Assembly (NCBI GenBank): GCA_028824015.1
Contig: JAPPFC010000055.1
Coordinates: 40,506-104,505, forward strand
Length of the DNA stretch: 64,000 bases
Direction of reading: 5' to 3'
DNA from: a bacterium
GTDB lineage: Bacteria > Actinomycetota > Acidimicrobiia > Spongiisociales > ZC4RG35
Numbering within the stretch: the first letter of the stretch is position 1; the number at the start of each line of letters is the position of its first letter. A program made the translations under genes and the position numbers. Under the pieces are notes generated by a model. The model was given only the letters and a program-made list of their open reading frames with translations. It searched no databases and was not told the origin of the DNA. Below, in pieces: positions 34,255 through 45,408 of the stretch.

Positions 34255-36183
34255 CTAGGCGGAGATTTGGGAAAGCACCCGCTCGGCCACGGCCTCGGCT
34301 ACGAAGCCGAACTCTCGGGCCAGTACCTCATAGGGCGCCGAGGCGCCGAAACTGTCAATCCCGATCGCTAGCCCTTCGGCCCCCACCATTCTCTCCCACC
34401 CGAAAGTGGCGCCGGCCTCCACGGAGACCCTCGGAATGCCCGCCCCCAGCACCTCTCGCCGATAGGAGGAGTCCTGCTCTGCGAACGCTTCCCAGCAGGT
34501 AAGGCTGACCACCCGCGCCGAGATCCCGCGGCTCTCCAGGAGGTCGGCGGCTTCCAGCGCCAGAGACACCTCCGACCCGCCGGCGATCAGGACCACGTCT
34601 TCCCCGGGACGCAGCATGTACCCGCCCCGGGCGGCCCCGCCTCGCGCCCGGGAGCGATCCAGAACCGGGAGGTTCTGGCGGCTGAGGACCAGGACCGTGG
34701 GCCCATCGGTGCGATTGAGGGCCATCTCCCAAGCCTCCACGGTCTCGGTGGCGTCGGCCGGACGGATCACCCACAGGCCGGGCATGGCTCGAAGCCCGGC
34801 GAGGTGCTCGACGGGTTGGTGAGTGGGACCGTCCTCTCCCAACATGATGGAGTCGTGAGTCATCACCCATATACAGGGGAGTTCCATCAAAGCGGACAGC
34901 CGGATGGAGGGCCGCATGTAGTCGGTGAACACGAAAAAGGTGGAACCGTAGGGACGGACCCCTCCATGCAGCGCCATCCCGTTCACTATCCCTCCCATCC
35001 CGTGCTCCCTTACCCCGAAGTGAATGTTCCGACCGGTGCGGGCCGAACGGGAAAAGCCCGGATCGCCGGGCAGCACCGTTTTGGTGGACTCCGCCAGGTC
35101 GGCCGCGCCTCCGATGAATCCCGGGACCTTCTCCCCGATCTGGCCGAAGAGCTTCCCCGATGCCGAACGGGTGGCGATGCTATCTCCGGGCTCGAATCCC
35201 GGAGACTCCAGTTGCACCGGCCGGTGGGCATGGAGAACTCGCCACTCTGCGCTACGTTCCCGGCTCTCCCAGTCTCGGCGCGCCGCCCTTCCCCGCTCCA
35301 TAGCCTCCGACATGAAGTCGTAGACCTCCGGCGGCGCCCAGAAGTCCTCCTCCGGCGGGATACCGATGTTCATCTTGGCCAGTCTCACTTCCGCTGCTCC
35401 GAGCGGCGCCCCGTGGGCGCCGGGGGTGTCCACCTTGTTGGGGGAACCGTGAGCGATATGGGTACGGCAGATGACCAGGGACGGCTGGTCCCCGGCGTCA
35501 AGAGCCTCCCGGGTGGCTTCCGCCACCGCCGACCGGTCGTGGCCGTCCACCGAGACGGTGTGCCATCCCAACGAGCGGAACCGCGCCCCGACGTCCTCGG
35601 AGAACGTGATCTCCGTTCCGCCGTCGATGGAGATGCGGTTGTCGTCGTAGAAGTAGATCAACCTCCCCAGGCCCAGATGTCCGGCCAGGGAAGCCGCCTC
35701 GGCTGCCACGCCCTCCATCAGGTCTCCGTCGGACACGAACCCGTAGGTGTGGTGATCGACCTGGTCGGCGCCCAGCCGCGCCCGGAGATGCTCCTCGGCG
35801 ATGGCCATTCCCACCCCGTTGGCGAAGCCCTGGCCGAGGGGACCGGTGGTTGTCTCGATTCCCAGCGCCGGTTCTCTCTCGGGGTGACCGGCCGTGGGAT
35901 AACCCCACTGGCGGAAATTCTTCAAGTCCTCCATGGTGACCGGGAACCCGCACAGATGCAACATGGCGTAGAGCAGCATCGAGCCGTGCCCGTTGGAGAG
36001 CACGAAGCGATCCCGATCGGCCCAGGTGGGACATCCCGGGTCCACCCTCATAAAGCGGGTCCAGAGGGTCACGGCGATGTCTGCCATGCCCATGGGCATC
36101 CCCGGATGGCCGGAGTTGGCTCGCTGGACGGCGTCCATGGCCAGTCCCTTGACAACCGCTACGGCGAGTTCTTCATTCCTCAT
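34255..36183 (-). CDS. tkt: Transketolase
   Basis: AMDAVQRANSGHPGMPMGMADIA, the TPP-binding GDGDLMEG-like motif and the C-terminal domain. The start is probably MRNEELAVAV at 36183. The track ORF extends to 36282. Confidence 0.9.
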   Translation of the reverse strand: MRNEELAVAVVKGLAMDAVQRANSGHPGMPMGMADIAVTLWTRFMRVDPGCPTWADRDRFVLSNGHGSMLLYAMLHLCGFPVTMEDLKNFRQWGYPTAGHPEREPALGIETTTGPLGQGFANGVGMAIAEEHLRARLGADQVDHHTYGFVSDGDLMEGVAAEAASLAGHLGLGRLIYFYDDNRISIDGGTEITFSEDVGARFRSLGWHTVSVDGHDRSAVAEATREALDAGDQPSLVICRTHIAHGSPNKVDTPGAHGAPLGAAEVRLAKMNIGIPPEEDFWAPPEVYDFMSEAMERGRAARRDWESRERSAEWRVLHAHRPVQLESPGFEPGDSIATRSASGKLFGQIGEKVPGFIGGAADLAESTKTVLPGDPGFSRSARTGRNIHFGVREHGMGGIVNGMALHGGVRPYGSTFFVFTDYMRPSIRLSALMELPCIWVMTHDSIMLGEDGPTHQPVEHLAGLRAMPGLWVIRPADATETVEAWEMALNRTDGPTVLVLSRQNLPVLDRSRARGGAARGGYMLRPGEDVVLIAGGSEVSLALEAADLLESRGISARVVSLTCWEAFAEQDSSYRREVLGAGIPRVSVEAGATFGWERMVGAEGLAIGIDSFGASAPYEVLAREFGFVAEAVAERVLSQISA

Positions 36184-39100
36184 CACCGAACATACGGTAC
36201 CAAGACGTCTCGGTGACCCTGCCATCGGCGGCGATACCCTGAGTGCGCTGCCAATACTTGGTGTCCGCCACGGTGTTCTCATCGAACACGCCCGTCACCT
36301 CGATCCCCAGCGCTCCCTGCCACTTCTCCACCAACGCACCCCTGTCGCCCTCTTCGATGACCACCGAGGAGGGCCGGGTGGTGGAACTCCCCGCGGAGGA
36401 CGAGCCGCCCGGCACGCTCGCTCCCGGGAACATCTTGACCCATGAGTTGACGCCTACTATCCCGTCGACCTCGAGGCCGTTGGCGCGCTGCCACTCCCGG
36501 GTGGCCCGGGCGGTCTGGGAGCCGAAGTGCCCGTCGGCGGGGATCCCCAATGCCCGCTGCCAGATAATCACATGCGTCCCCCGGGACCCGGTCCGCAGAG
36601 GCCGGCCCGGGTAGGGCGGAGCTTCTCCATCGAAGTCGTTATCCCCCGGATCCGGCGAAGATGTCTCCGTCGCTTCGGCCCCGGGGAACATCTTGAGCCA
36701 GGAACTGACTCCCACCACACCGTCTGCGGTGAGACCGTTGCGGTACTGCCAAGCCTTGGTCGCCGACAGGGTGGCCGAACCGAAATACCCATCGGCCTGT
36801 ATGCCCAGGGCGCGTTGCCAGATAATGACACTTGAACCGCTGTCCCCCATTTCAAGGGGTCGGCCCGGGTAGGGGGGGACGCCAGGTGTGGTACCCGTGC
36901 TTCCCGATCCCTGGCTGTCGTCACCCTCCTTGTCGGGGGGAGGTTCCGGCGCCTCCACCCCCGCGCCGGGGAACATGGTTTGCCAGCTTTGCATGCCCAC
37001 CACACCGTCAACCGTCAGGCCGTTGGCCTGCTGCCACTCCCGGGTGGCCTGGGCCGTGCCGGTTCCGAAGTACCCGTCGGCCGCAACCCCCAGTGCGGAC
37101 TGCCAGGTCCGCACCCACTTCCCTCGGCTGCCCAGTCGCAGGACGAAGCCGGGGTAGCTGGGAGCCTGGGGATCGGTTGCCTCCGGTTGAGGCGCCTCTT
37201 CAGGGTCAGGCTCGGTCTCGGTCTCCGGATCAGGCTCCGGTTGGGGAGGGGCGGGTTGGGAGAACATCCTGTCCCAGGATTGGCTCCCGACTATTCCGTC
37301 GGGAGCCAGACCATTGGCCTGCTGCCACTCCCGGGTGGCGGCGGTGGTGGCCGGTCCGAAATCTCCATCGGCGGTGACGCCCAACGCCTCCTGCCACAGT
37401 CGCACATCGCTCCCCCGGCTCCCCTCGCGCAGCGGCTGGCCGGGATAGGGGTGCTCGATGATCAGCGCGCTGGGAGGGGTGGGTTCAGAGGGAGGACTCG
37501 AACCTATCTGGTTGCCGGCAGTGACCGTGAAGCTGTACGCCACCCCTGCTTGAAGACCGCTGATGACCGCGGTGGTCTGGGACGCCGCCACCGTGACCGG
37601 ATCGGAATGGGCCGGATCGACGCTGACCGTGTAGCGCTCGGGCGCAAAGCGGGAGGAAACCGGGCTCCAACTCACCGTCGCCACGCGCCCCCCGCTGACC
37701 GTCACGCCGGTGGGAGCGGGCGGCGGCGCCCACCAGTCCGCCAGGTAGTCGATCGTGAAGTACCGGGACCGAAGGCGGAGTGCGGACCTCAGCGTCGGAG
37801 CCGAAACCCTTTCGGTGACTCTGTCGCCTCCCCGGATCCCGGCGATGTTGAGAAACTGGGCGCTCCCCCACGGATAGGAAACCGTGTCAACCGAGATTAC
37901 GTCGTCGAATCGATCGGACAACTCATAGATGTCGAGCAGTTGGGACAGAGAGAGGGTCTTTGCCCAGAAGGCGTTGGGATTGACGGCGGGATCGATCGAC
38001 CAAGGATCCTGGACCGAGACCAGGTAAGGCCGCCCCGCCGTCCCCCAGATCGTCGAGGAGTCCTCGGTCGCCCCTCCACTGGAGGACGAGTAGAAAGCCT
38101 GAACCACTCCTACGGATTCCTCGGGATGGGTCAGCACTCTTCCCGCGGTGGCCCGGGCTCCCACCAGTTCCCAGCGGCCCCCGTTCTGTATCTCCCTGTT
38201 CCAACCTCCATATACCTGGTCACGGGCGTCGCTGACCACATGACACCAGCAGGCCGACTTGCGGGAACTGCTCAGGGAAGGCTCCGCTCCCCGCCGAAGC
38301 ATTGCATATATCGCGTACGATCGGGCTGCGATGGCCTGGGCCTCCAACGCGGCGTCCGGCCAGGTGGGAGGGATCTCCGCTATGCCTGCCACGTAGTCCT
38401 CGATGTCCATCTCCATCGAGAAGTGGATCCTCCCTCCGCTGGGACGGACCCGCACATTGCCGTGGATGAACTGTGTCATCTCTCCCCCGTAGTTGAGGCC
38501 TCTCAGGCCCACCCGGTTGGAGTGGGAGAGATCCTGGATGCTCAGCCGGCATCCCGCGGCCACCCCCAGCGGTGCGGCGGTACAGGATCCGTCCCCCGCC
38601 GCGGTCACCACCAGGTCCTCTCCCGCATCGAGGTAGTAGGCCCCGGCGCAGTCGGGCAAGCCGCTTCCCGCCACCAGCGCCTGCCAGGTTTGGCTCCCCA
38701 CCGTCCCGTCAGCGCCCAGGCCCTGGGACGTCTGGAAGGAGACCACCGCATCCTTTACCGCTTGGTTGAAGGAACCGGGCGTCTCCTGCAGGTACCCCCG
38801 TTCCACCAACCTGCTGATCAAGAGATCGGTGAAGGTGTTGTCACGTCCGGGAGTCGTCCCTTCGGCCAGCACCGGATAGGAGGAATACTCCCCGTCGAAG
38901 CAGACCCTCACCCGGCCGGTTACCACCGCGAAGGTCAACTCCGACCGGTTTTGCCTTATCCCCACCCAGATGGGCAGTGGTTCGGTGATCACCCAAGAAC
39001 CGGGTACTGCGTCGGCAAGATTCTCGACGGATGAGCCCTGGTAGAAGTGCTGAAGAATCTGGGTGGCGGTGTAACCCTCCTCCGCCATGCCCTTGGCGCC

Positions 39101-39496
39101 GTACTGGGTGAGACCCACTCCATGCCCATGTCCGGACCCCTCGATAATCAACTGCACCCTGTCCGGGCTGGTGGTCGCGGTGCCCGACCCGGGAAACATC
39201 GCCCGCCAGGAAGCGGCGCCCACTATCCCATCCGCCTCCAAGCCACGCTCGTTCTGCCAGGCGATAGTGGCTGCTTCGGTTTGTCGGCCGAACACCCCGT
39301 CAGCCGGAATCCCGAGAGCCTCCTGCCAGATCCTGACCGACTCGCCGCGGCTGCCCAGCCGCAGGGGCTCCCCCGGGTAATCGGCCGCCGCGACCGGAAC
39401 GACCGTTCCCAGTAGCAAGATCATCGCGGCCAGAAACGCCGCCACCCGCTTGGACGAGTGTCGTCCCATTGAATTCCTGATGCCTTCCAAGGTCAA
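36173..39496 (-). CDS. Large secreted cell-wall protein: N-terminal signal peptide, SpoIID/LytB domain, fibronectin-III-like region and about seven peptidoglycan-binding (PG_binding_1) repeats
   Basis: 1107 aa. Repeated units have the form GSRG..V..WQ.ALG...DG.FG..T..AT..WQ...GL..DG.VG..SW. A SpoIID/LytB-like core is present (YLVSVQDPWS...HSNRVGLRGLNYGGEM). Signal peptide AAFLAAMILLLGTVVPVAAA. The reverse-strand repeated ORFs in the track are artefacts of these repeats. Confidence 0.7.
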   Translation of the reverse strand: MTLEGIRNSMGRHSSKRVAAFLAAMILLLGTVVPVAAADYPGEPLRLGSRGESVRIWQEALGIPADGVFGRQTEAATIAWQNERGLEADGIVGAASWRAMFPGSGTATTSPDRVQLIIEGSGHGHGVGLTQYGAKGMAEEGYTATQILQHFYQGSSVENLADAVPGSWVITEPLPIWVGIRQNRSELTFAVVTGRVRVCFDGEYSSYPVLAEGTTPGRDNTFTDLLISRLVERGYLQETPGSFNQAVKDAVVSFQTSQGLGADGTVGSQTWQALVAGSGLPDCAGAYYLDAGEDLVVTAAGDGSCTAAPLGVAAGCRLSIQDLSHSNRVGLRGLNYGGEMTQFIHGNVRVRPSGGRIHFSMEMDIEDYVAGIAEIPPTWPDAALEAQAIAARSYAIYAMLRRGAEPSLSSSRKSACWCHVVSDARDQVYGGWNREIQNGGRWELVGARATAGRVLTHPEESVGVVQAFYSSSSGGATEDSSTIWGTAGRPYLVSVQDPWSIDPAVNPNAFWAKTLSLSQLLDIYELSDRFDDVISVDTVSYPWGSAQFLNIAGIRGGDRVTERVSAPTLRSALRLRSRYFTIDYLADWWAPPPAPTGVTVSGGRVATVSWSPVSSRFAPERYTVSVDPAHSDPVTVAASQTTAVISGLQAGVAYSFTVTAGNQIGSSPPSEPTPPSALIIEHPYPGQPLREGSRGSDVRLWQEALGVTADGDFGPATTAATREWQQANGLAPDGIVGSQSWDRMFSQPAPPQPEPDPETETEPDPEEAPQPEATDPQAPSYPGFVLRLGSRGKWVRTWQSALGVAADGYFGTGTAQATREWQQANGLTVDGVVGMQSWQTMFPGAGVEAPEPPPDKEGDDSQGSGSTGTTPGVPPYPGRPLEMGDSGSSVIIWQRALGIQADGYFGSATLSATKAWQYRNGLTADGVVGVSSWLKMFPGAEATETSSPDPGDNDFDGEAPPYPGRPLRTGSRGTHVIIWQRALGIPADGHFGSQTARATREWQRANGLEVDGIVGVNSWVKMFPGASVPGGSSSAGSSTTRPSSVVIEEGDRGALVEKWQGALGIEVTGVFDENTVADTKYWQRTQGIAADGRVTETSWYRMFGDEE

Positions 39497-39568
39497 GCCC
39501 TCAGTCTTGAACAGATACCCAAAGACCCCACCCGCGCCGCCTCGCCAAGTTTAGGGGCCGGACCGAGG

Positions 39569-41305
39569 CTAAATGTACGACCTGGCCACCGGTCGGCGGC
39601 CGATCACCACCGGAGTCCTCCCCGGTGACTGAGGGGTGGCTGCCTGCTTGGAACTCTTGGCGTGATAACTGGAGCGCACCAGCGGCCCCGATTCCACATG
39701 CGGGATGCCCAAAGCCTCGCCGTAGGAGCGGTATTCCTGGAACTCGTCGGGGTGAACGTAGCGATGCACGGGTCGGTGGCGGGGGCTGGGACGCAGATAT
39801 TGGCCGATCGTGACAATGTCCACTCCCACCGCCCGCAGGTCGGCCAGCGCCCCCAGCACCTCGTCGCGGGTCTCGCCCATCCCCACTATCAGCCCCGATT
39901 TGACGAGTCCCTCGGCATAGAGCCGCTTGGCTCGGGCCAGGAGCGCCAACGAGCGCCCGTAGTTGGCGGAGGTGCGGATCTCCCGCTGCAGCCTGACGAC
40001 GGTCTCGGTGTTGTGATTGAGCACGTCGGGACGCTCGGCCATCACCGTCTCCAGTGCTTCCGGATCACCCTTGAAGTCGGGAATCAGCACCTCGATGTCG
40101 GTGTGGGGGGACCGGGCGCGGGTCTCCCTGATGGTGGCGGCAAAGACCGCCGAGCCGCCATCTGGCAGGTCGTCACGGTTCACGGAGGTGATCACCGCGT
40201 GGTTCAGGCCCATCCGATGGATCGCCTCGGCCGCCCGGTGGGGCTCCTCGAGGTCTAGCCCCAGGGGCCGGGCGGTCGTCACGTTGCAGAACCCGCAGGC
40301 GCGGGTGCAACGGTCGCCCAGAATCATCAGGGTGGCGGTCCCCATCCCCCAGCACTCGTAGATGTTGGGACATCCCGCCTCTTCGCAAACCGTATTGAGG
40401 TCCAGGGATCGCATCAGTTTCTTCAGTTCCAGGTACTCGGCGTCCATCCGGGCCGTCACCCGCATCCAGGGGGGACGCTCCGGCTCGCCCGGCAGCCTCC
40501 GGGTTCTCCCCGAGAGGCTCACCGCCACGCGGTCGGGTGAAAAGGTTCCCTCCCTGAGCAACCTGTCCACCTCGAAGTCTCTGTCCCGTCCCTGACCCCG
40601 GACAAAAGCTGCCATCTGCGTCTCCATCGTGGTCTTTCCGAATGTCTCGGCGAAACGCGGCACAAAGGCTTCCACCGCCTCCTCGAGCGATACACGCCGA
40701 CCCACCAGTTCGCTCACGGAAGTAACCGGGCGATCGGTGATCCCACAGGGGTTTATGTGCCCGAAATACTCCATGCTGGGGTGCAGGTTGAGAGCGAAGC
40801 CGTGCATCGACACCCGCCGGGAGACCCGTACGCCGATGGCCGCCACCTTTCCGCCCCGGGTCCACACCCCGGTGAGCCCGGGTTCGGGCCAGGCTTCTAC
40901 TCCCAGATCGGAGAGGGTTGCCACCAACGCCTGTTCCAGGGAGCGCACGTAGTCGGTTATCCGGGAGGGTTTAACGGCGATGAGCGGATACCCGACCAGT
41001 TGGCCGGGGCCGTGATAGGTAACGTCCCCTCCCCGGTCGACCCGGAAGAACTCCGCTCCCACCTCCGAGAGCCGGTCGGGGCCGATCAGAAGATGAGAGC
41101 CGTCCCCTCTTCGTCCCACCGTGTAAACGTGGGGATGTTCCAGCAACAACAGGTAGTCGTCCGCTATGGCCCCTCCGGCCCGGCGCTCCCAGATGGCTCG
41201 CTGGAGGTCCCAGGCCTCTGCATAAGGAAGCCGCCCCAGCCATCGCACGCGAAGGGTGGGGCTCACCCCGGGGGGGGTCACCTCAATTCCTGCTCCCAGT
41301 CCCAT
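39569..41305 (-). CDS. Fused octanoyltransferase LipB - lipoyl synthase LipA (single 578-aa reading frame)
   Basis: The N-terminal 230 aa are LipB (PHVYTVGRRG, GGDVTYHGPGQLVGYPL, KVAAIGVR). The C-terminal 320 aa are LipA (PPWMRV..., the CEEAGCPNIYEC auxiliary cluster, and the CTRACGFC radical-SAM cluster). The frame is continuous. GTG at 41281 overlaps the E2 stop as GTGA and is an alternative start. Confidence 0.8.
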   Translation of the reverse strand: MGLGAGIEVTPPGVSPTLRVRWLGRLPYAEAWDLQRAIWERRAGGAIADDYLLLLEHPHVYTVGRRGDGSHLLIGPDRLSEVGAEFFRVDRGGDVTYHGPGQLVGYPLIAVKPSRITDYVRSLEQALVATLSDLGVEAWPEPGLTGVWTRGGKVAAIGVRVSRRVSMHGFALNLHPSMEYFGHINPCGITDRPVTSVSELVGRRVSLEEAVEAFVPRFAETFGKTTMETQMAAFVRGQGRDRDFEVDRLLREGTFSPDRVAVSLSGRTRRLPGEPERPPWMRVTARMDAEYLELKKLMRSLDLNTVCEEAGCPNIYECWGMGTATLMILGDRCTRACGFCNVTTARPLGLDLEEPHRAAEAIHRMGLNHAVITSVNRDDLPDGGSAVFAATIRETRARSPHTDIEVLIPDFKGDPEALETVMAERPDVLNHNTETVVRLQREIRTSANYGRSLALLARAKRLYAEGLVKSGLIVGMGETRDEVLGALADLRAVGVDIVTIGQYLRPSPRHRPVHRYVHPDEFQEYRSYGEALGIPHVESGPLVRSSYHAKSSKQAATPQSPGRTPVVIGRRPVARSYI

Positions 41306-42588
41306 GTCTCCAGGTTGTTCTTGACACGTTGCAGGAATAGCACCGCGGTCGATCCGTCGAAGGCGCGATGATCCCAGGAAAAGCCCAGGTAACCGATGTG
41401 GCGGATGGCCAGGGCATCCCGGCCGTCAGCCGTGGTCACCACCACCGGCCGTTTGGCAACCGTGTCGGTGGAGAGAATGGCGACGTTGGGGACGTTGATG
41501 ATCGGCGCCGACAGGAAGGAATCGAAAGGCCCGGGGTTGGTGATGGTGAAGGTCGAACCGGTCATCTGGTCGGGGCCCAACTGGCGGTTGCGGGCCGCGG
41601 TGGACAGATGCCGGATGCGGCGCGCCAACCCGACCAGACGAAGATTGTCGGCATCGCGGATGGTCACCACCACCAGACCCTGCTGGTCAAGGTCCACGGC
41701 GATTCCCAGGTCGATCCGGCTGTGGTAGACAGCCTTGCGATCCTCGAGATAGAAGGAGCTATTCACCACCGGGTGAGCCCGGAGAGCGTCCATGACGGCC
41801 CGGCACACGAACGGCAGATAGGTGAGAGAGAAGCCCTCTTCCCTTCTGAAGCGGGCCTTGTGAGCGGAGCGCACCTCGGCTATCGGCTCAAAATCCACCT
41901 CGACCGAGGTCCAGACGTGGGCGGCGGTCTGGCGGGAGCGGATCATGTTCTCCCCTATCCGGACTCGGAGGCGGCTCAAGTCCACCCGCTCCTCTTCGCC
42001 CGGGGGTGCGACCGGCGCCGGAGCGGCCGGGGGAGTTTCTTCGGAAGGCTCCGCAGCGACGGGCTGGGCTCCGCCCTCCAAATAGGCTTCCACATCCCGG
42101 CGGGTCACCCTCCCCCCTTCTCCGGTGCCTGCAATCAGGTCCAAGTCGATCCCGTGCTGGCGGACCAGTCGGCGAACCACAGGGGACAGACGCCGGGACC
42201 GCCCGGGCCGTCCTGCTGCCACCGCCGTCGGCGGGAGATGGGGTTGCTCTCCCCGGGGAGCCGAGGGCTCGGCTTCGGCGTCGGGAGGCGAGACATCGGG
42301 AGGAGACTCCGCCATCTCGGGTGCGGGGGTTTCCTCCTGCACGGAGCCGCCGTGGTCTCCAACCACGCAGAGGTCCCTGCCCACTTCCACCGTCTCGCCC
42401 TCGGGCACCAGTATCTCCAGCATCACTCCCGACACCGGTGAGGGGATCTCGGTGTCCACCTTGTCGGTGGAGATCTCCAGCACCACCTCGCCCTGGGATA
42501 TGGCGTCACCCACCTGCTTTGCCCACCGCAGGATGGTCCCCTCGGTGACCGTCTCGCCCAGTTGCGGCATGGAGATGGTGGTTGTCAT
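41278..42588 (-). CDS. Dihydrolipoamide acyltransferase E2 component (2-oxoacid dehydrogenase complex)
   Basis: Lipoyl domain (ISTDKVDTEIPSP), an Ala/Pro-rich linker, an E3-binding domain, and a catalytic domain with DHRAFDG. Confidence 0.88.
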   Translation of the reverse strand: MTTTISMPQLGETVTEGTILRWAKQVGDAISQGEVVLEISTDKVDTEIPSPVSGVMLEILVPEGETVEVGRDLCVVGDHGGSVQEETPAPEMAESPPDVSPPDAEAEPSAPRGEQPHLPPTAVAAGRPGRSRRLSPVVRRLVRQHGIDLDLIAGTGEGGRVTRRDVEAYLEGGAQPVAAEPSEETPPAAPAPVAPPGEEERVDLSRLRVRIGENMIRSRQTAAHVWTSVEVDFEPIAEVRSAHKARFRREEGFSLTYLPFVCRAVMDALRAHPVVNSSFYLEDRKAVYHSRIDLGIAVDLDQQGLVVVTIRDADNLRLVGLARRIRHLSTAARNRQLGPDQMTGSTFTITNPGPFDSFLSAPIINVPNVAILSTDTVAKRPVVVTTADGRDALAIRHIGYLGFSWDHRAFDGSTAVLFLQRVKNNLETWDWEQELR

Positions 42589-42618
42589 CGGGAACTCCTA
42601 ATCCAGTGCATGCTTGTC

Positions 42619-43998
42619 TCAGTGCAGACTACGGCCCGTTGCCGACAGGAGCGTCTCCCCAACCGCCTCCGACAGGGTGGGATGAGCATGGATGAAGGCT
42701 GCGGCTTCCTCGGGGAGGGCCTCCCAGCCCACAGCGAACATCAGTTCGTGGATCATCTCACCTGCCTGAGGTCCGACAACGGCCGCGCCCACCAGAGGGC
42801 CGTCCTTCTCCGCAACCACCTTCACCATCCCCTGGCTCTGCCCGATGATGAGCGCCCTGCCCACGCCGCCGAACGGGTGCTTGGTGATCTGCACTTCCAT
42901 TCCCATGGCCTGAGCGTCGGCCGCGCTGATCCCCACCTCCGCCACCTCCGGATGGGTGTAGGTAACCCTGGGAATGGCTCGATAGTCCACCGGAGCAGGT
43001 TCGCCGGTGGCGATGTAGGTGGCCGCCGCGATCCCCTCGGCGAAAGCTGCATGGGCCAGTTGGGGCGTGCCGGCCACTATGTCCCCCACCGCGTACACCC
43101 CCGGCTCGGCGGTCTCCATCGTCACCGAATCCACCTTGATGTAGCCTCCCTCCACCTCGGCCCGGACCGTTTCCAAACCTATTCCGTCAGTGTTGGGGCC
43201 CCTGCCCACCGCCACCAAGGCGACATCCACCTCCAGGGCCCTGTCCCGGAATGAGACCTTCACGCCGTTGTCGGTGACCTCGGCAGGACCCACCCCCGTC
43301 TTCAGGAAGAACTTCACGCCCCTACGGCCGAGTTGTCGCTGCAACTGACGGGACGCGTCGGCGTCTCCACCGGGGATCAGCTGCCTCTCCAGTTCGAAGA
43401 CCGAGACCTCCGCCCCCAGGTCCACCAGGAGCGAGGCGAACTCACACCCTATGACCCCTCCGCCGATGATCGCCACCCGGTCGGGACGGGACGACCAGTT
43501 CACGGCGTGATCAGAGGTGACAATCCGGTCTCCGTCGATCTCCCAGCCGGGAATGGTCCTGGCGTGGGATCCCGTGGCCACCACCACCGCTCTCCCCTCC
43601 AGCGTCTCTCCTCCCTCCATCACGATCCTGCCCGGTCCCCCCAGGCGGCCCCGTCCTGGTACGACCTCCACCCCTCGCTTCCGGAGCAGACCGGAGAGAC
43701 CGGTCACCAGTTGGTTGACCACCCGGTCCTTCCGGGCCAGGGCCGCTGACCAGTCCAGTTCCGGTTCGGACGTCAAGACTCCAAACGCCTCCGCATTCCT
43801 CACTGTCGAGAACACCTCGGCCACCTGCAGCCACTGCTTGGCCGGTATACAGCCGCGCAACAGGCAGGTCCCACCGGGCCGTTCCTCCTCCACCAGGGCA
43901 ACCGAGAGCCCGAAGTTCCGGGCGTACAGGGCCGTGGCGTATCCTCCCGGTCCCCCTCCCAAAATCACGATGTCGAACGGGGACTCACTCATAGACAA
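42619..43998 (-). CDS. lpd: Dihydrolipoyl dehydrogenase (E3)
   Basis: FDIVILGGGPGGYATA, the redox disulfide GGTCLLRGCIPAK, and the C-terminal HAHPTLSE motif. Confidence 0.92.
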   Translation of the reverse strand: MSMSESPFDIVILGGGPGGYATALYARNFGLSVALVEEERPGGTCLLRGCIPAKQWLQVAEVFSTVRNAEAFGVLTSEPELDWSAALARKDRVVNQLVTGLSGLLRKRGVEVVPGRGRLGGPGRIVMEGGETLEGRAVVVATGSHARTIPGWEIDGDRIVTSDHAVNWSSRPDRVAIIGGGVIGCEFASLLVDLGAEVSVFELERQLIPGGDADASRQLQRQLGRRGVKFFLKTGVGPAEVTDNGVKVSFRDRALEVDVALVAVGRGPNTDGIGLETVRAEVEGGYIKVDSVTMETAEPGVYAVGDIVAGTPQLAHAAFAEGIAAATYIATGEPAPVDYRAIPRVTYTHPEVAEVGISAADAQAMGMEVQITKHPFGGVGRALIIGQSQGMVKVVAEKDGPLVGAAVVGPQAGEMIHELMFAVGWEALPEEAAAFIHAHPTLSEAVGETLLSATGRSLH

Positions 43999-44054
43999 AG
44001 CGGGTGTCAGTCATAGATGGGAATGTTAACTCTCCTGCGGATATCATCGGACGG

Positions 44055-44147
44055 ATGCCCACTCGCTACCTGATCATCGCCTCCGCCGCCGTCGGGTTGC
44101 TGATTCTGGTGGCCGGGGTGATCTGGTTCTTGCGACTGTACGTCTAA
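44055..44147 (+). CDS. Possible 30-aa single-TM micro-protein (MPTRYLIIASAAVGLLILVAGVIWFLRLYV)
   Basis: A short ORF in the lpd/LLM intergenic gap with a strongly hydrophobic core and a weak GGACGG RBS. Its stop overlaps the LLM gene stop on the other strand. Speculative. Confidence 0.25.
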   Translation: MPTRYLIIASAAVGLLILVAGVIWFLRLYV

Positions 44148-45058
44148 GCCGGGGCCATCGCTTCCACCGCCGGCTCGAGACCTTCCTTTCCCACCGGGAC
44201 CGGTCGAACCACCAACTCGTCCAGTCCTGAGGAACGGTAGGAATCCAACTGAGCCCGGCATTCCTCCGGGGTCCCCGCGATCCCCAGGTGGGCTGCCGCC
44301 CCCCGAAGATCATCGGGATCCAGTCCCTGCTTATCGACATGCTTGCGGTAGAAACCGAGCCGCAGGTAGTGGCCCAGTTCCTTGGCCAGCGCACGGCGAG
44401 CCTCATCCGGGTCCGAGGAGACCGCCACCCGCACATAGGCTGCGATGTGGAAGAAGGCCGCCCCCCTGTCAAGACCGCGAAGCCGCTCCGTGGTGGCGCG
44501 GAGGTGCGCCGCGCTGCACCAGTTGAGCAGCACTCCGTCGGCCTCTCGCACAGCCAACTCCAGCATGCGAGGTCCCATGGCTCCCACCACCGTCCACACG
44601 GGACCGGAGGGAAGCAGTCCCAGTCGAGCCCCTTCCACAGAGAAGAACCGGCCGTGGTGGGTCACCTTTCTCCCATGTCGAAGTTCGCCCACGATCTTCA
44701 GGTAGTCGGAGACCGCATCGAGGGGAGAGGAAAGATCGAAGTTGAAGAACCGCCGGGCCGCCACCGGGTGCCCTGATCCGATTCCCAGCACCATGCGCCC
44801 GGGGCCGGCTATGGCCGAAATAGTGGCTGCGCCCATCGCGGCAGCCACTGGCGAGCGAACGTAGACCGGCAGCACTCCGGTGGCGAGCCGGATCCTGGAA
44901 GTGGCGGTCGCCCACGCCGCCAGGGTGGAGAAAGCCTCCCTCGCGGTGGACTCGTTGGTCCACGCCGCGCTGTAGCCGAGCTGTTCCGCCCGGGCTGCAA
45001 CCTCTGTGAGCCGTCGGGCGGAGAGGCCCGGATCCACCAGCGACACCCCCAACTCCAT
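44144..45058 (-). CDS. LLM-class (luciferase-like) flavin/F420-dependent oxidoreductase
   Basis: About 304 aa from MELGVSLVD, with a TIM-barrel LLM signature (GYSAAWTNE, GIGSGH). The track ORF has a 96-codon upstream extension that overlaps the zinc-ribbon gene. Confidence 0.75.
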   Translation of the reverse strand: MELGVSLVDPGLSARRLTEVAARAEQLGYSAAWTNESTAREAFSTLAAWATATSRIRLATGVLPVYVRSPVAAAMGAATISAIAGPGRMVLGIGSGHPVAARRFFNFDLSSPLDAVSDYLKIVGELRHGRKVTHHGRFFSVEGARLGLLPSGPVWTVVGAMGPRMLELAVREADGVLLNWCSAAHLRATTERLRGLDRGAAFFHIAAYVRVAVSSDPDEARRALAKELGHYLRLGFYRKHVDKQGLDPDDLRGAAAHLGIAGTPEECRAQLDSYRSSGLDELVVRPVPVGKEGLEPAVEAMAPA

Positions 45059-45408
45059 CAAACACCCAGGCCGGGGAGGGAGACCTCCGCGCGGCAGTTT
45101 GGACAGATGGCCGTCTGGATCGGTCCCACAATGAAACTGAAGGAGCACTCCGGGCAGGAGACCCGCGGAGACGGCGGATCCGGCGGAGGGGCCGGCGGGC
45201 CGGGAGGACCCGATGATGGCGCTCCCGGGTATCCGCCCGGTCCGGGTACCGGGGCGTGCTGGGAGGGATCGGGGCCGGATGGGGGGACGCCCCCCGGACC
45301 CGGAGCGGGCCCCTTGACCTGGTTGACGGCTCCGCACCTCGGACACGAGAACCGGCCCGGGCGGGAAATGTTAACGCTGGAGCGACAGGCGCCGCATCTG
45401 ACTCTCAT
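45058..45408 (-). CDS. Small double zinc-ribbon protein with a Pro/Gly-rich linker
   Basis: 116 aa: CGAC-x13-CPRC, then a ~60-aa PG-rich low-complexity segment, then CPEC-x14-CPNC. The stop overlaps the ATG of the LLM oxidoreductase (TGATG). Confidence 0.55.
   Translation of the reverse strand: MRVRCGACRSSVNISRPGRFSCPRCGAVNQVKGPAPGPGGVPPSGPDPSQHAPVPGPGGYPGAPSSGPPGPPAPPPDPPSPRVSCPECSFSFIVGPIQTAICPNCRAEVSLPGLGV

Follow-up and report, generated by a model that had tools for sequence, protein, structure and literature searches.

The 64,000-nucleotide (nt) stretch of acidimicrobial DNA analysed here, referred to throughout as the window (GenBank assembly GCA_028824015.1, contig JAPPFC010000055.1, positions 40,506 to 104,505), carries on its minus strand an open reading frame (ORF), here called lipBA, that follows the genes for a dihydrolipoyl dehydrogenase (lpd, the E3 component) and a dihydrolipoyl acyltransferase (the E2 component). 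The lipBA ORF occupies positions 39569-41305 of the window, the stop codon being counted in, and encodes 578 amino acids (aa; 63.7 kDa) from its first ATG. An earlier reading of the letters alone, hereafter the original prediction, had claimed that this ORF joins a complete LipB octanoyltransferase to a complete LipA lipoyl synthase. The ORF is present as described, both domains score above curated cut-offs, and, read on the minus strand, the frame is uninterrupted by any stop codon or frameshift. The motifs then quoted are all located in the translation: PHVYTVGRRG at residue 58, GPGQLVGYPL at 99 and KVAAIGVR at 153 in the LipB half, and CEEAGCPNIYEC at 307 and CTRACGFC at 333 in the LipA half. 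Two further motifs were located, NPCG at 185 and RSSY at 544. Pfam places LplA-B_cat at residues 27-218 (E 3e-46), LIAS_N at 266-312 and Radical_SAM at 327-488, and these scores, like those against NCBIfam given below, lie so far above chance that lipBA is not a chance ORF in G+C-rich DNA. The evidence set out here makes it very probable that lipBA is a real, translated gene for a bifunctional LipB-LipA protein.

The LipB domain, as delimited by Pfam and NCBIfam, comprises residues 17-225 (40631-41257, minus strand). Over these residues it reaches 196.4 bits against NCBIfam NF010925 (PRK14345; cut-off 155), and it scores 157.3 bits against TIGR00214 (cut-off 83.55). Alignment with Mycobacterium tuberculosis LipB (1W66) sets Lys153 (codon 40847-40849) and Cys187 (codon 40745-40747) upon the dyad K142/C176 of that enzyme (indices 144 and 178 of the tagged chain), and this half can also be aligned to the LipB of Thermus thermophilus (2QHS). 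Pfam finds LplA-B_cat alone in the N-terminal half, which lacks the C-terminal accessory domain of LplA and is not of the adenosine triphosphate (ATP)-dependent ligase type. The LipA domain comprises residues 277-556 (39638-40477, minus strand) by Pfam, NCBIfam and a tblastn match at 40477..39638; across that span it scores 404 bits against NF004019 (PRK05481; cut-off 203) and 347.7 bits against TIGR00510 (cut-off 310.25). Within it lie the auxiliary-cluster motif C307-x4-C312-x5-C318 (40352-40387), the motif C333-x3-C337-x2-C340 of radical S-adenosylmethionine (SAM) enzymes (C333-T-R-A-C337-G-F-C340; 40286-40309) and RSSY at residues 544-547 (39665-39676), the C-terminal serine-ligand motif of LipA, all on the minus strand. 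Residues 263-551 (289 residues) align with residues 32-317 of M. tuberculosis LipA (5EXI), an alignment that covers the auxiliary-cluster cysteines and RSSY. Beyond the domain there remains only a C-terminal tail (residues 557-578; 39572-39637, minus strand) that is poorly conserved, with a column conservation of 0.20 and 40% gaps. A structure predicted by AlphaFold2 from the LipBA alignment has a mean predicted local distance difference test score (pLDDT) of 78 and a predicted template-modelling score (pTM) of 0.83; the two domains mostly exceed a pLDDT of 85 and the tail falls below 50. No solved chain in the PDB spans both a LipB and a LipA half.

Since fused domains sometimes decay, it was considered that one half of LipBA may have become degenerate and non-catalytic, to be kept as a binding or scaffolding module. 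No direct evidence favours this scenario, which appears very improbable: both halves surpass the curated cut-offs (equivalog or subfamily), the 64-kb window holds no further copy of lipA or lipB, and, when 67 fused homologues (69-94% identity) are aligned, the catalytic residues K153, C187, C307, C312, C318, C333, C337, C340, S545 and S546 are invariant in all 67.

The original prediction had singled out the junction between the halves (~40560-40640) as the place where a sequencing or assembly error could have merged two genes, and had proposed a survey of relatives for fused as opposed to split genes. The junction, re-read, contains neither a stop codon nor a frame break, and its composition is of the coding type, with a G+C content of 0.68-0.85 at third codon positions (GC3) compared with ~0.5 at second positions (GC2). 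Relative to the 12 closest loci, the linker codons have accumulated 0.18, 0.13 and 0.37 substitutions at the first, second and third codon positions, respectively, a third-position bias seen also in both flanking domains; the junction is thus translated in this frame and under purifying selection. Among the 120 best protein matches drawn from a collection of 5.8 billion proteins, which range from 100% down to 70% identity and several of which lie on contigs of 1-3 Mb, LplA-B_cat, LIAS_N and Radical_SAM occur together in every one (537-593 aa). At the nucleotide level, one genome per GTDB species was searched and the best 80 of 399 matches were inspected. A single continuous tblastn match runs over both halves in all 80 loci, the complete long-read chromosomes OZ242375.1 and OZ242000.1 among them, and none of these 80 sampled species has reverted to separate lipB and lipA. 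All 80 are metagenome-assembled genomes (MAGs) of the Acidimicrobiia type, the few differing labels having the appearance of binning or naming noise.

Frameshift errors do strike this gene family. A 243-aa "LipB" (P0196) was entertained as a true split relative, the only such case inspected, and rejected as a frameshifted copy on a long-read contig of 2x coverage. On that contig (locus L081, 4001-5673) lipBA is called as three overlapping genes of 243, 210 and 131 aa, a frameshift that mimics split genes; its neighbourhood reads lpd-E2-lipBA, followed by an M24 peptidase and a transketolase. For a 296-aa LipA of 62% identity (P0176), the contig is 1 kb long and offers only 39 nt of upstream sequence, so that its split or fused state is not readable. 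The possibility that the continuous frame in the window is itself such an error, and that the organism possesses separate lipB and lipA genes, could draw on the broken copy at 2x coverage. However, the same fused frame recurs in all 80 independent species-level genomes and in all 120 best protein matches, and the linker is free of insertions and deletions (indels) in 67 sequences with its substitutions biased to third positions. The artefact reading is effectively refuted.

Alignment to separate LipB and LipA proteins, as had been suggested, defines the segment between the domains as residues 226-276 (51 residues; 40478-40630, minus strand). Its last part, residues 263-276, corresponds to the extension that actinobacterial LipA naturally has at its N terminus, the family model starting at residue 277. 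The preceding part, residues 226-262 (40520-40630, minus strand), carries a conserved, clade-specific motif, F-x-R-G-Q-G ... F-E-V-D-R-L-L ... G-T-F-S (residues ~233-256), and matches no Pfam family. That the linker might supply the N-terminal half of LIAS_N, the situation seen in eukaryotic LIAS, was considered too and rejected, as only profile positions 47-96 are matched, by residues 264-312, and nothing at 226-263. In the 67 homologues, the conservation of residues 226-262 comes close to that of the LipB domain (mean majority fraction 0.74 compared with 0.79); the stretch has not a single indel and eight invariant residues, A233, G237, Q238, G239, E245, V246, D247 and G253. The motif is absent from stand-alone LipA and LipB among the best 150 cluster representatives of the exhaustive search described below, where it is confined to close fused relatives and fragments of these. 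AlphaFold2 places a short helix (245-251) on FEVDRLL. The conserved linker motif is the sole feature of lipBA that goes beyond a plain fusion of adjacent genes, and its conservation, as judged from the alignment, argues mildly for a role of more than a passive tether. It is conceivable, although rather unlikely, that the linker is a structural element that locks the active sites of LipB and LipA together as a single composite site, or that docks the enzyme on the E2 core. If this were so, the lipoyl domain would be octanoylated and sulfurated in one binding event, which would amount to true channelling of a protein-bound intermediate, and the family would offer a natural one-polypeptide system in which to trap the LipB-to-LipA hand-off structurally.

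Another case, in which the gene is fused and two separate enzymes nevertheless result, either by internal initiation near the junction or by proteolysis within the linker, is suggested by the presence of Met228, Met232 and Met281 in the window protein and by the low confidence of the linker model, as such a segment could be accessible to proteases. This case is improbable. Neither Met228 nor Met232 is kept in relatives (V, A, E or D at the former position; L, K, Y, F, R, I or Q at the latter), Met281 is part of the ordinary P-x-W-M motif of LipA, and a linker that served for nothing but cleavage should not have remained indel-free with eight invariant residues.

Upstream of lipBA on the minus strand lies the gene for E2 (41278-42588; 436 aa), the presumed substrate of LipBA. 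The E2 protein has a single lipoyl domain (Biotin_lipoyl 4-74), an E3_binding domain (133-167) and a 2-oxoacid_dh domain (197-429) by Pfam; its lipoyl target would be Lys43, within ...EISTDKVDTE..., and its best NCBIfam match is SucB_Actino at 391 bits, under the cut-off of 423. The first gene of the row is lpd (42619-43998, minus strand; TIGR01350, 454 bits, cut-off 408.8), 30 nt upstream of E2. The gene order lpd-E2-lipBA, which the original prediction had read as an operon, is present as a same-strand row in the window and is retained in all related loci for which upstream DNA is available. No E1 gene was found near the row in the window. A scan of 39000-44600 for promoters and terminators came back empty, a result that is uninformative for an actinobacterium of 64% G+C.

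The start of lipBA bears directly on its relation to E2. As had been noted, a GTG (41279-41281) in frame with lipBA overlaps the TGA stop of E2 (41278-41280) as GTGA (41278-41281, minus strand), so that the downstream start overlaps the upstream stop on the same strand, which is the arrangement of a translationally coupled pair; a 4-nt overlap of this kind is a very common operon junction. Initiation at this GTG would yield 570 aa (63.0 kDa), while the ATG at 41305 sits 28 nt inside E2. An in-frame NTG overlaps the E2 TGA in 52 of 77 loci, the window counted (27 GTG, 18 TTG and 7 ATG), although, with the frame fixed and a TGA stop, three of the four bases before TG give a start codon, such that the conserved frame register and the ATG cases are informative and the presence of NTG alone is not. 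Because of the overlap in these 52 loci, seven of them with ATG, the GTG at 41281 (570 aa) is the likelier start, as compared with the ATG at 41305 (578 aa). In several of the 52 (e.g., L013 and L048) the NTG overlap is the only plausible start, and the upstream ATG, at position -25, is largely limited to the closest relatives. Ahead of that ATG, within E2, the lipBA frame continues without a stop for ~40 codons (41306-41425, minus strand), and for hundreds of codons in some relatives; some public gene calls run LipBA far into E2 (e.g., P0130, 519 aa, and P0138, 634 aa). N-terminal lengths in databases are therefore unreliable for the LipBA family.

These data permit a working model in which lipBA is a vertically inherited gene for a bifunctional lipoate-assembly enzyme; it most likely stems from an actinobacterial-type E2-lipB-lipA cluster in which the lipB stop codon and the spacer that kept lipB apart from the adjoining lipA disappeared. 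From the sequence we infer that LipBA performs both octanoyl transfer and sulfur insertion. In LipB, a Cys/Lys dyad takes octanoate onto the cysteine and then transfers it to the lysine of a lipoyl domain (PMC9307952). By this family chemistry, the LipB half would accept octanoate from octanoyl-acyl carrier protein (ACP) as a thioester on Cys187, with Lys153 as its partner, and would pass it to Lys43 of the E2 lipoyl domain, and probably to other lipoyl proteins as well. LipA puts two sulfur atoms into the octanoyl chain (PMC12246082, a summary of the pathway). In the LipA half, the [4Fe-4S] cluster held by C333, C337 and C340 would generate 5'-deoxyadenosyl radicals, and two sulfur atoms would be inserted at C6 and C8 from the auxiliary cluster (C307, C312, C318 and the RSSY serine). 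Sulfur insertion by LipA is radical-SAM chemistry in which the enzyme consumes its auxiliary cluster. The fusion would fix the two activities at a 1:1 ratio and in one place, whereby an octanoylated lipoyl domain leaving LipB may meet LipA at high local concentration. In addition, the overlap with E2 most likely provides coupling by termination and reinitiation, so that the output of lipBA would follow that of E2 proportionally and probably be lower. Substrate channelling and co-translation of the lipoylation machinery with E2, both of which the original prediction had raised, may follow from such an arrangement, as may lipoylation during translation. Whether the fusion brings any kinetic benefit is far less certain than the identity of the protein.

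Several points weigh against this model. The evidence consists of sequence and a structure model. The linker is modelled at low confidence (pLDDT 47-62), and may be a flexible tether or a docking element. The split ancestral order of the cluster is presumed: the actinobacterial neighbourhood E2 (sucB/dlaT)-lipB-lipA, with which lipBA shares its gene order and in which lipB and lipA are separate, is represented by M. tuberculosis Rv2215-Rv2218 and by sucB-lipB-lipA of Corynebacterium, and a literature search for the M. tuberculosis neighbourhood (Rv2215/2217/2218) gave no hit. The 4-nt overlap is missing from 25 of the 77 loci, whose junctions are short but of other kinds; 23 of these have an in-frame start between -5 and +54 nt from the E2 stop, so that tight coupling is frequent and not obligatory. 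Further, a Planctomycetota MAG and a 7.85-Mb contig carry fused genes without an adjoining E2 or lpd. The fusion is therefore independent of E2 linkage, which belongs to the Acidimicrobiia lineage and not to the fusion.

The wider distribution was assessed by searching 1.84 billion cluster representatives (50% identity) exhaustively with phmmer, and the best 150 were classified by mapping the two halves separately. Seventy-two are LipB-LipA, seven are LipA-LipB, 67 are LipA only and four are LipB only, some of these being fragments. Linkers in the fused representatives measure 2-94 residues. The source names of distant fused clusters include Acidimicrobiia, Planctomycetota (two clusters) and Candidatus Sumerlaeota, and, for the reverse order, Oligoflexia; in public annotation these distant fusions are merely "lipoyl synthase". 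The original prediction had implied that the fusion is rare, and this was overstated: a large clade of Acidimicrobiia carries it as a rule, and it recurs elsewhere, in other phyla and in both orders. The LipB-LipA fusion is thus a widespread architecture, inside and outside its clade, that is visible in databases and is built of two well-known enzymes. Both domain orders, several phyla and varied linkers show more than one event of fusion or rearrangement. Reverse-order proteins, with LipA first, are P0141, P0153, P0154, P0157, P0167, P0183 and P0200, and the locus L084 (5001-6539) is of this kind; their junctions measure -5 to 8 residues, one of their clusters bears the name of Oligoflexia MAGs, and their existence shows that the domains were joined independently in both orders. 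A number of lipoyl synthases carry other additions, namely N-terminal extensions of 150-210 aa (P0228, P0237, P0170, P0227 and P0248) or a C-terminal extension of ~185 aa (P0219). These extra regions have no NCBIfam match at E<=1e-10, and could be further fusion partners or overextended gene calls.

This recurrence bears on whether the fusion has any function of its own. It is possible that lipBA is a near-neutral accident of adjacent, co-expressed genes, which has left a working enzyme whose domains act independently on lipoyl domains that diffuse freely or swing, with neither a hand-off nor a kinetic gain. The repeated appearance of LipB/LipA fusions in several phyla, in both orders and with linkers that differ widely in length (2-94 residues) fits the easy, repeated fusion of neighbours; LipA representatives with and without the fusion are intermingled when ranked by similarity; and the E2 lipoyl domain is in any case carried on a flexible arm. 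However, in the clade of the window the linker is conserved almost to the level of the LipB domain and is indel-free, which suggests that it does more than connect, and the fusion has been retained in 80 of 80 sampled species with no return to split genes. We regard this kinetically neutral reading as a quite credible alternative that nonetheless falls short of probable, and the gene for a bifunctional LipBA, fused in an E2-linked cluster and inherited vertically, as the preferred reading for this clade.

In comparison with known systems, LipBA shares enzyme families, catalytic residues and reaction order with the two-gene LipB and LipA pathway (Escherichia coli; M. tuberculosis 1W66 and 5EXI/5EXJ/5EXK), from which it differs in being a single polypeptide with a 51-residue linker. 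A close curated architecture is NF053790 ("LplA_LipA_fuse", bifunctional lipoate-protein ligase/lipoyl synthase), in which an enzyme of the LplA/LipB superfamily is fused N-terminally to LipA. A 626-aa protein (P0234) matches this model end to end at 723 bits, whereas LipBA reaches 360 bits against a cut-off of 800 and aligns to profile positions 332-605 only, that is, with its LipA half; P0234, unlike LipBA, is also matched by NCBIfam's model for lipoate-protein ligase, TIGR00545. The difference lies in the N-terminal half, which in LipBA is an ACP-dependent LipB and not an ATP-dependent LplA with an accessory domain. The LipB-LipA and LipA-LipB fusions of other phyla combine the same two domains in one protein, but their variable linkers lack the F-x-R-G-Q-G/F-E-V-D-R-L-L/G-T-F-S motif, and in the two contexts examined they are not beside E2 or lpd. 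The Lpl(AB) and Lpl(BA) ligases indicate that fusion and rearrangement of modules are recurrent in the evolution of lipoate assembly (Tanabe et al., 2023, PMC10332631), although what those proteins join is the catalytic domain of one enzyme with its accessory domain, and not two consecutive enzymes of a pathway. The 2023 survey of prokaryotic lipoate assembly gives fusions for LplA/LplB only and leaves LipB-LipA unmentioned (PMC10332631). No LipB-LipA-specific NCBIfam model was matched by LipBA or by two distant fused proteins, and a full-text literature search found no description of a LipB-LipA fusion, which does not of itself prove absence from the literature. As far as these searches of the literature and NCBIfam reached, the fusion is undescribed and unnamed.

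As individual enzymes LipB and LipA are well understood, and it is the passage of the octanoylated domain between them that is unsettled. A natural single-chain LipB-LipA with a conserved linker would lend itself well to structural and kinetic studies of this hand-off, and lipBA would provide a compact one-gene module for the engineering of lipoylation. With hundreds of fusions labelled only "lipoyl synthase", genome-based pathway surveys will score their hosts as lacking LipB. In biological terms, LipBA, two consecutive enzymes in one chain, is a Rosetta-stone fusion of the ordinary kind and opens no long-standing question.

Other features of the window concern the surroundings of the row. 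Directly downstream of lipBA (36173-39496, minus strand) is encoded a 1107-aa protein that combines a SpoIID domain and a single fibronectin type III domain with six stretches matched by PG_binding_1, between which lie spacers rich in Pro and Glu. The 3' end of its gene overlaps the start of a transketolase ORF (34255-36282) by 110 nt, and the transketolase start is therefore probably over-called. On the other side of the row, a luciferase-like monooxygenase ORF (44144-45346, minus strand) begins with ~100 low-complexity residues rich in Pro, Gly and Arg ahead of its Pfam domain, and is thus probably over-extended; overlapping this extension is a 116-aa ORF (45058-45408, minus strand) whose four CxxC pairs resemble a zinc ribbon and whose middle is rich in proline. 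The closest relatives of lipBA, at 94% identity (L001-L003), come from the MAGs SB0665_bin_24, RHO1_bin_22 and RHO3_bin_31. Isolate names of the SB0665, RHO1 and RHO3 type are, we presume, those of marine-sponge microbiome studies, in which case the window may derive from a sponge-associated member of the Acidimicrobiia.

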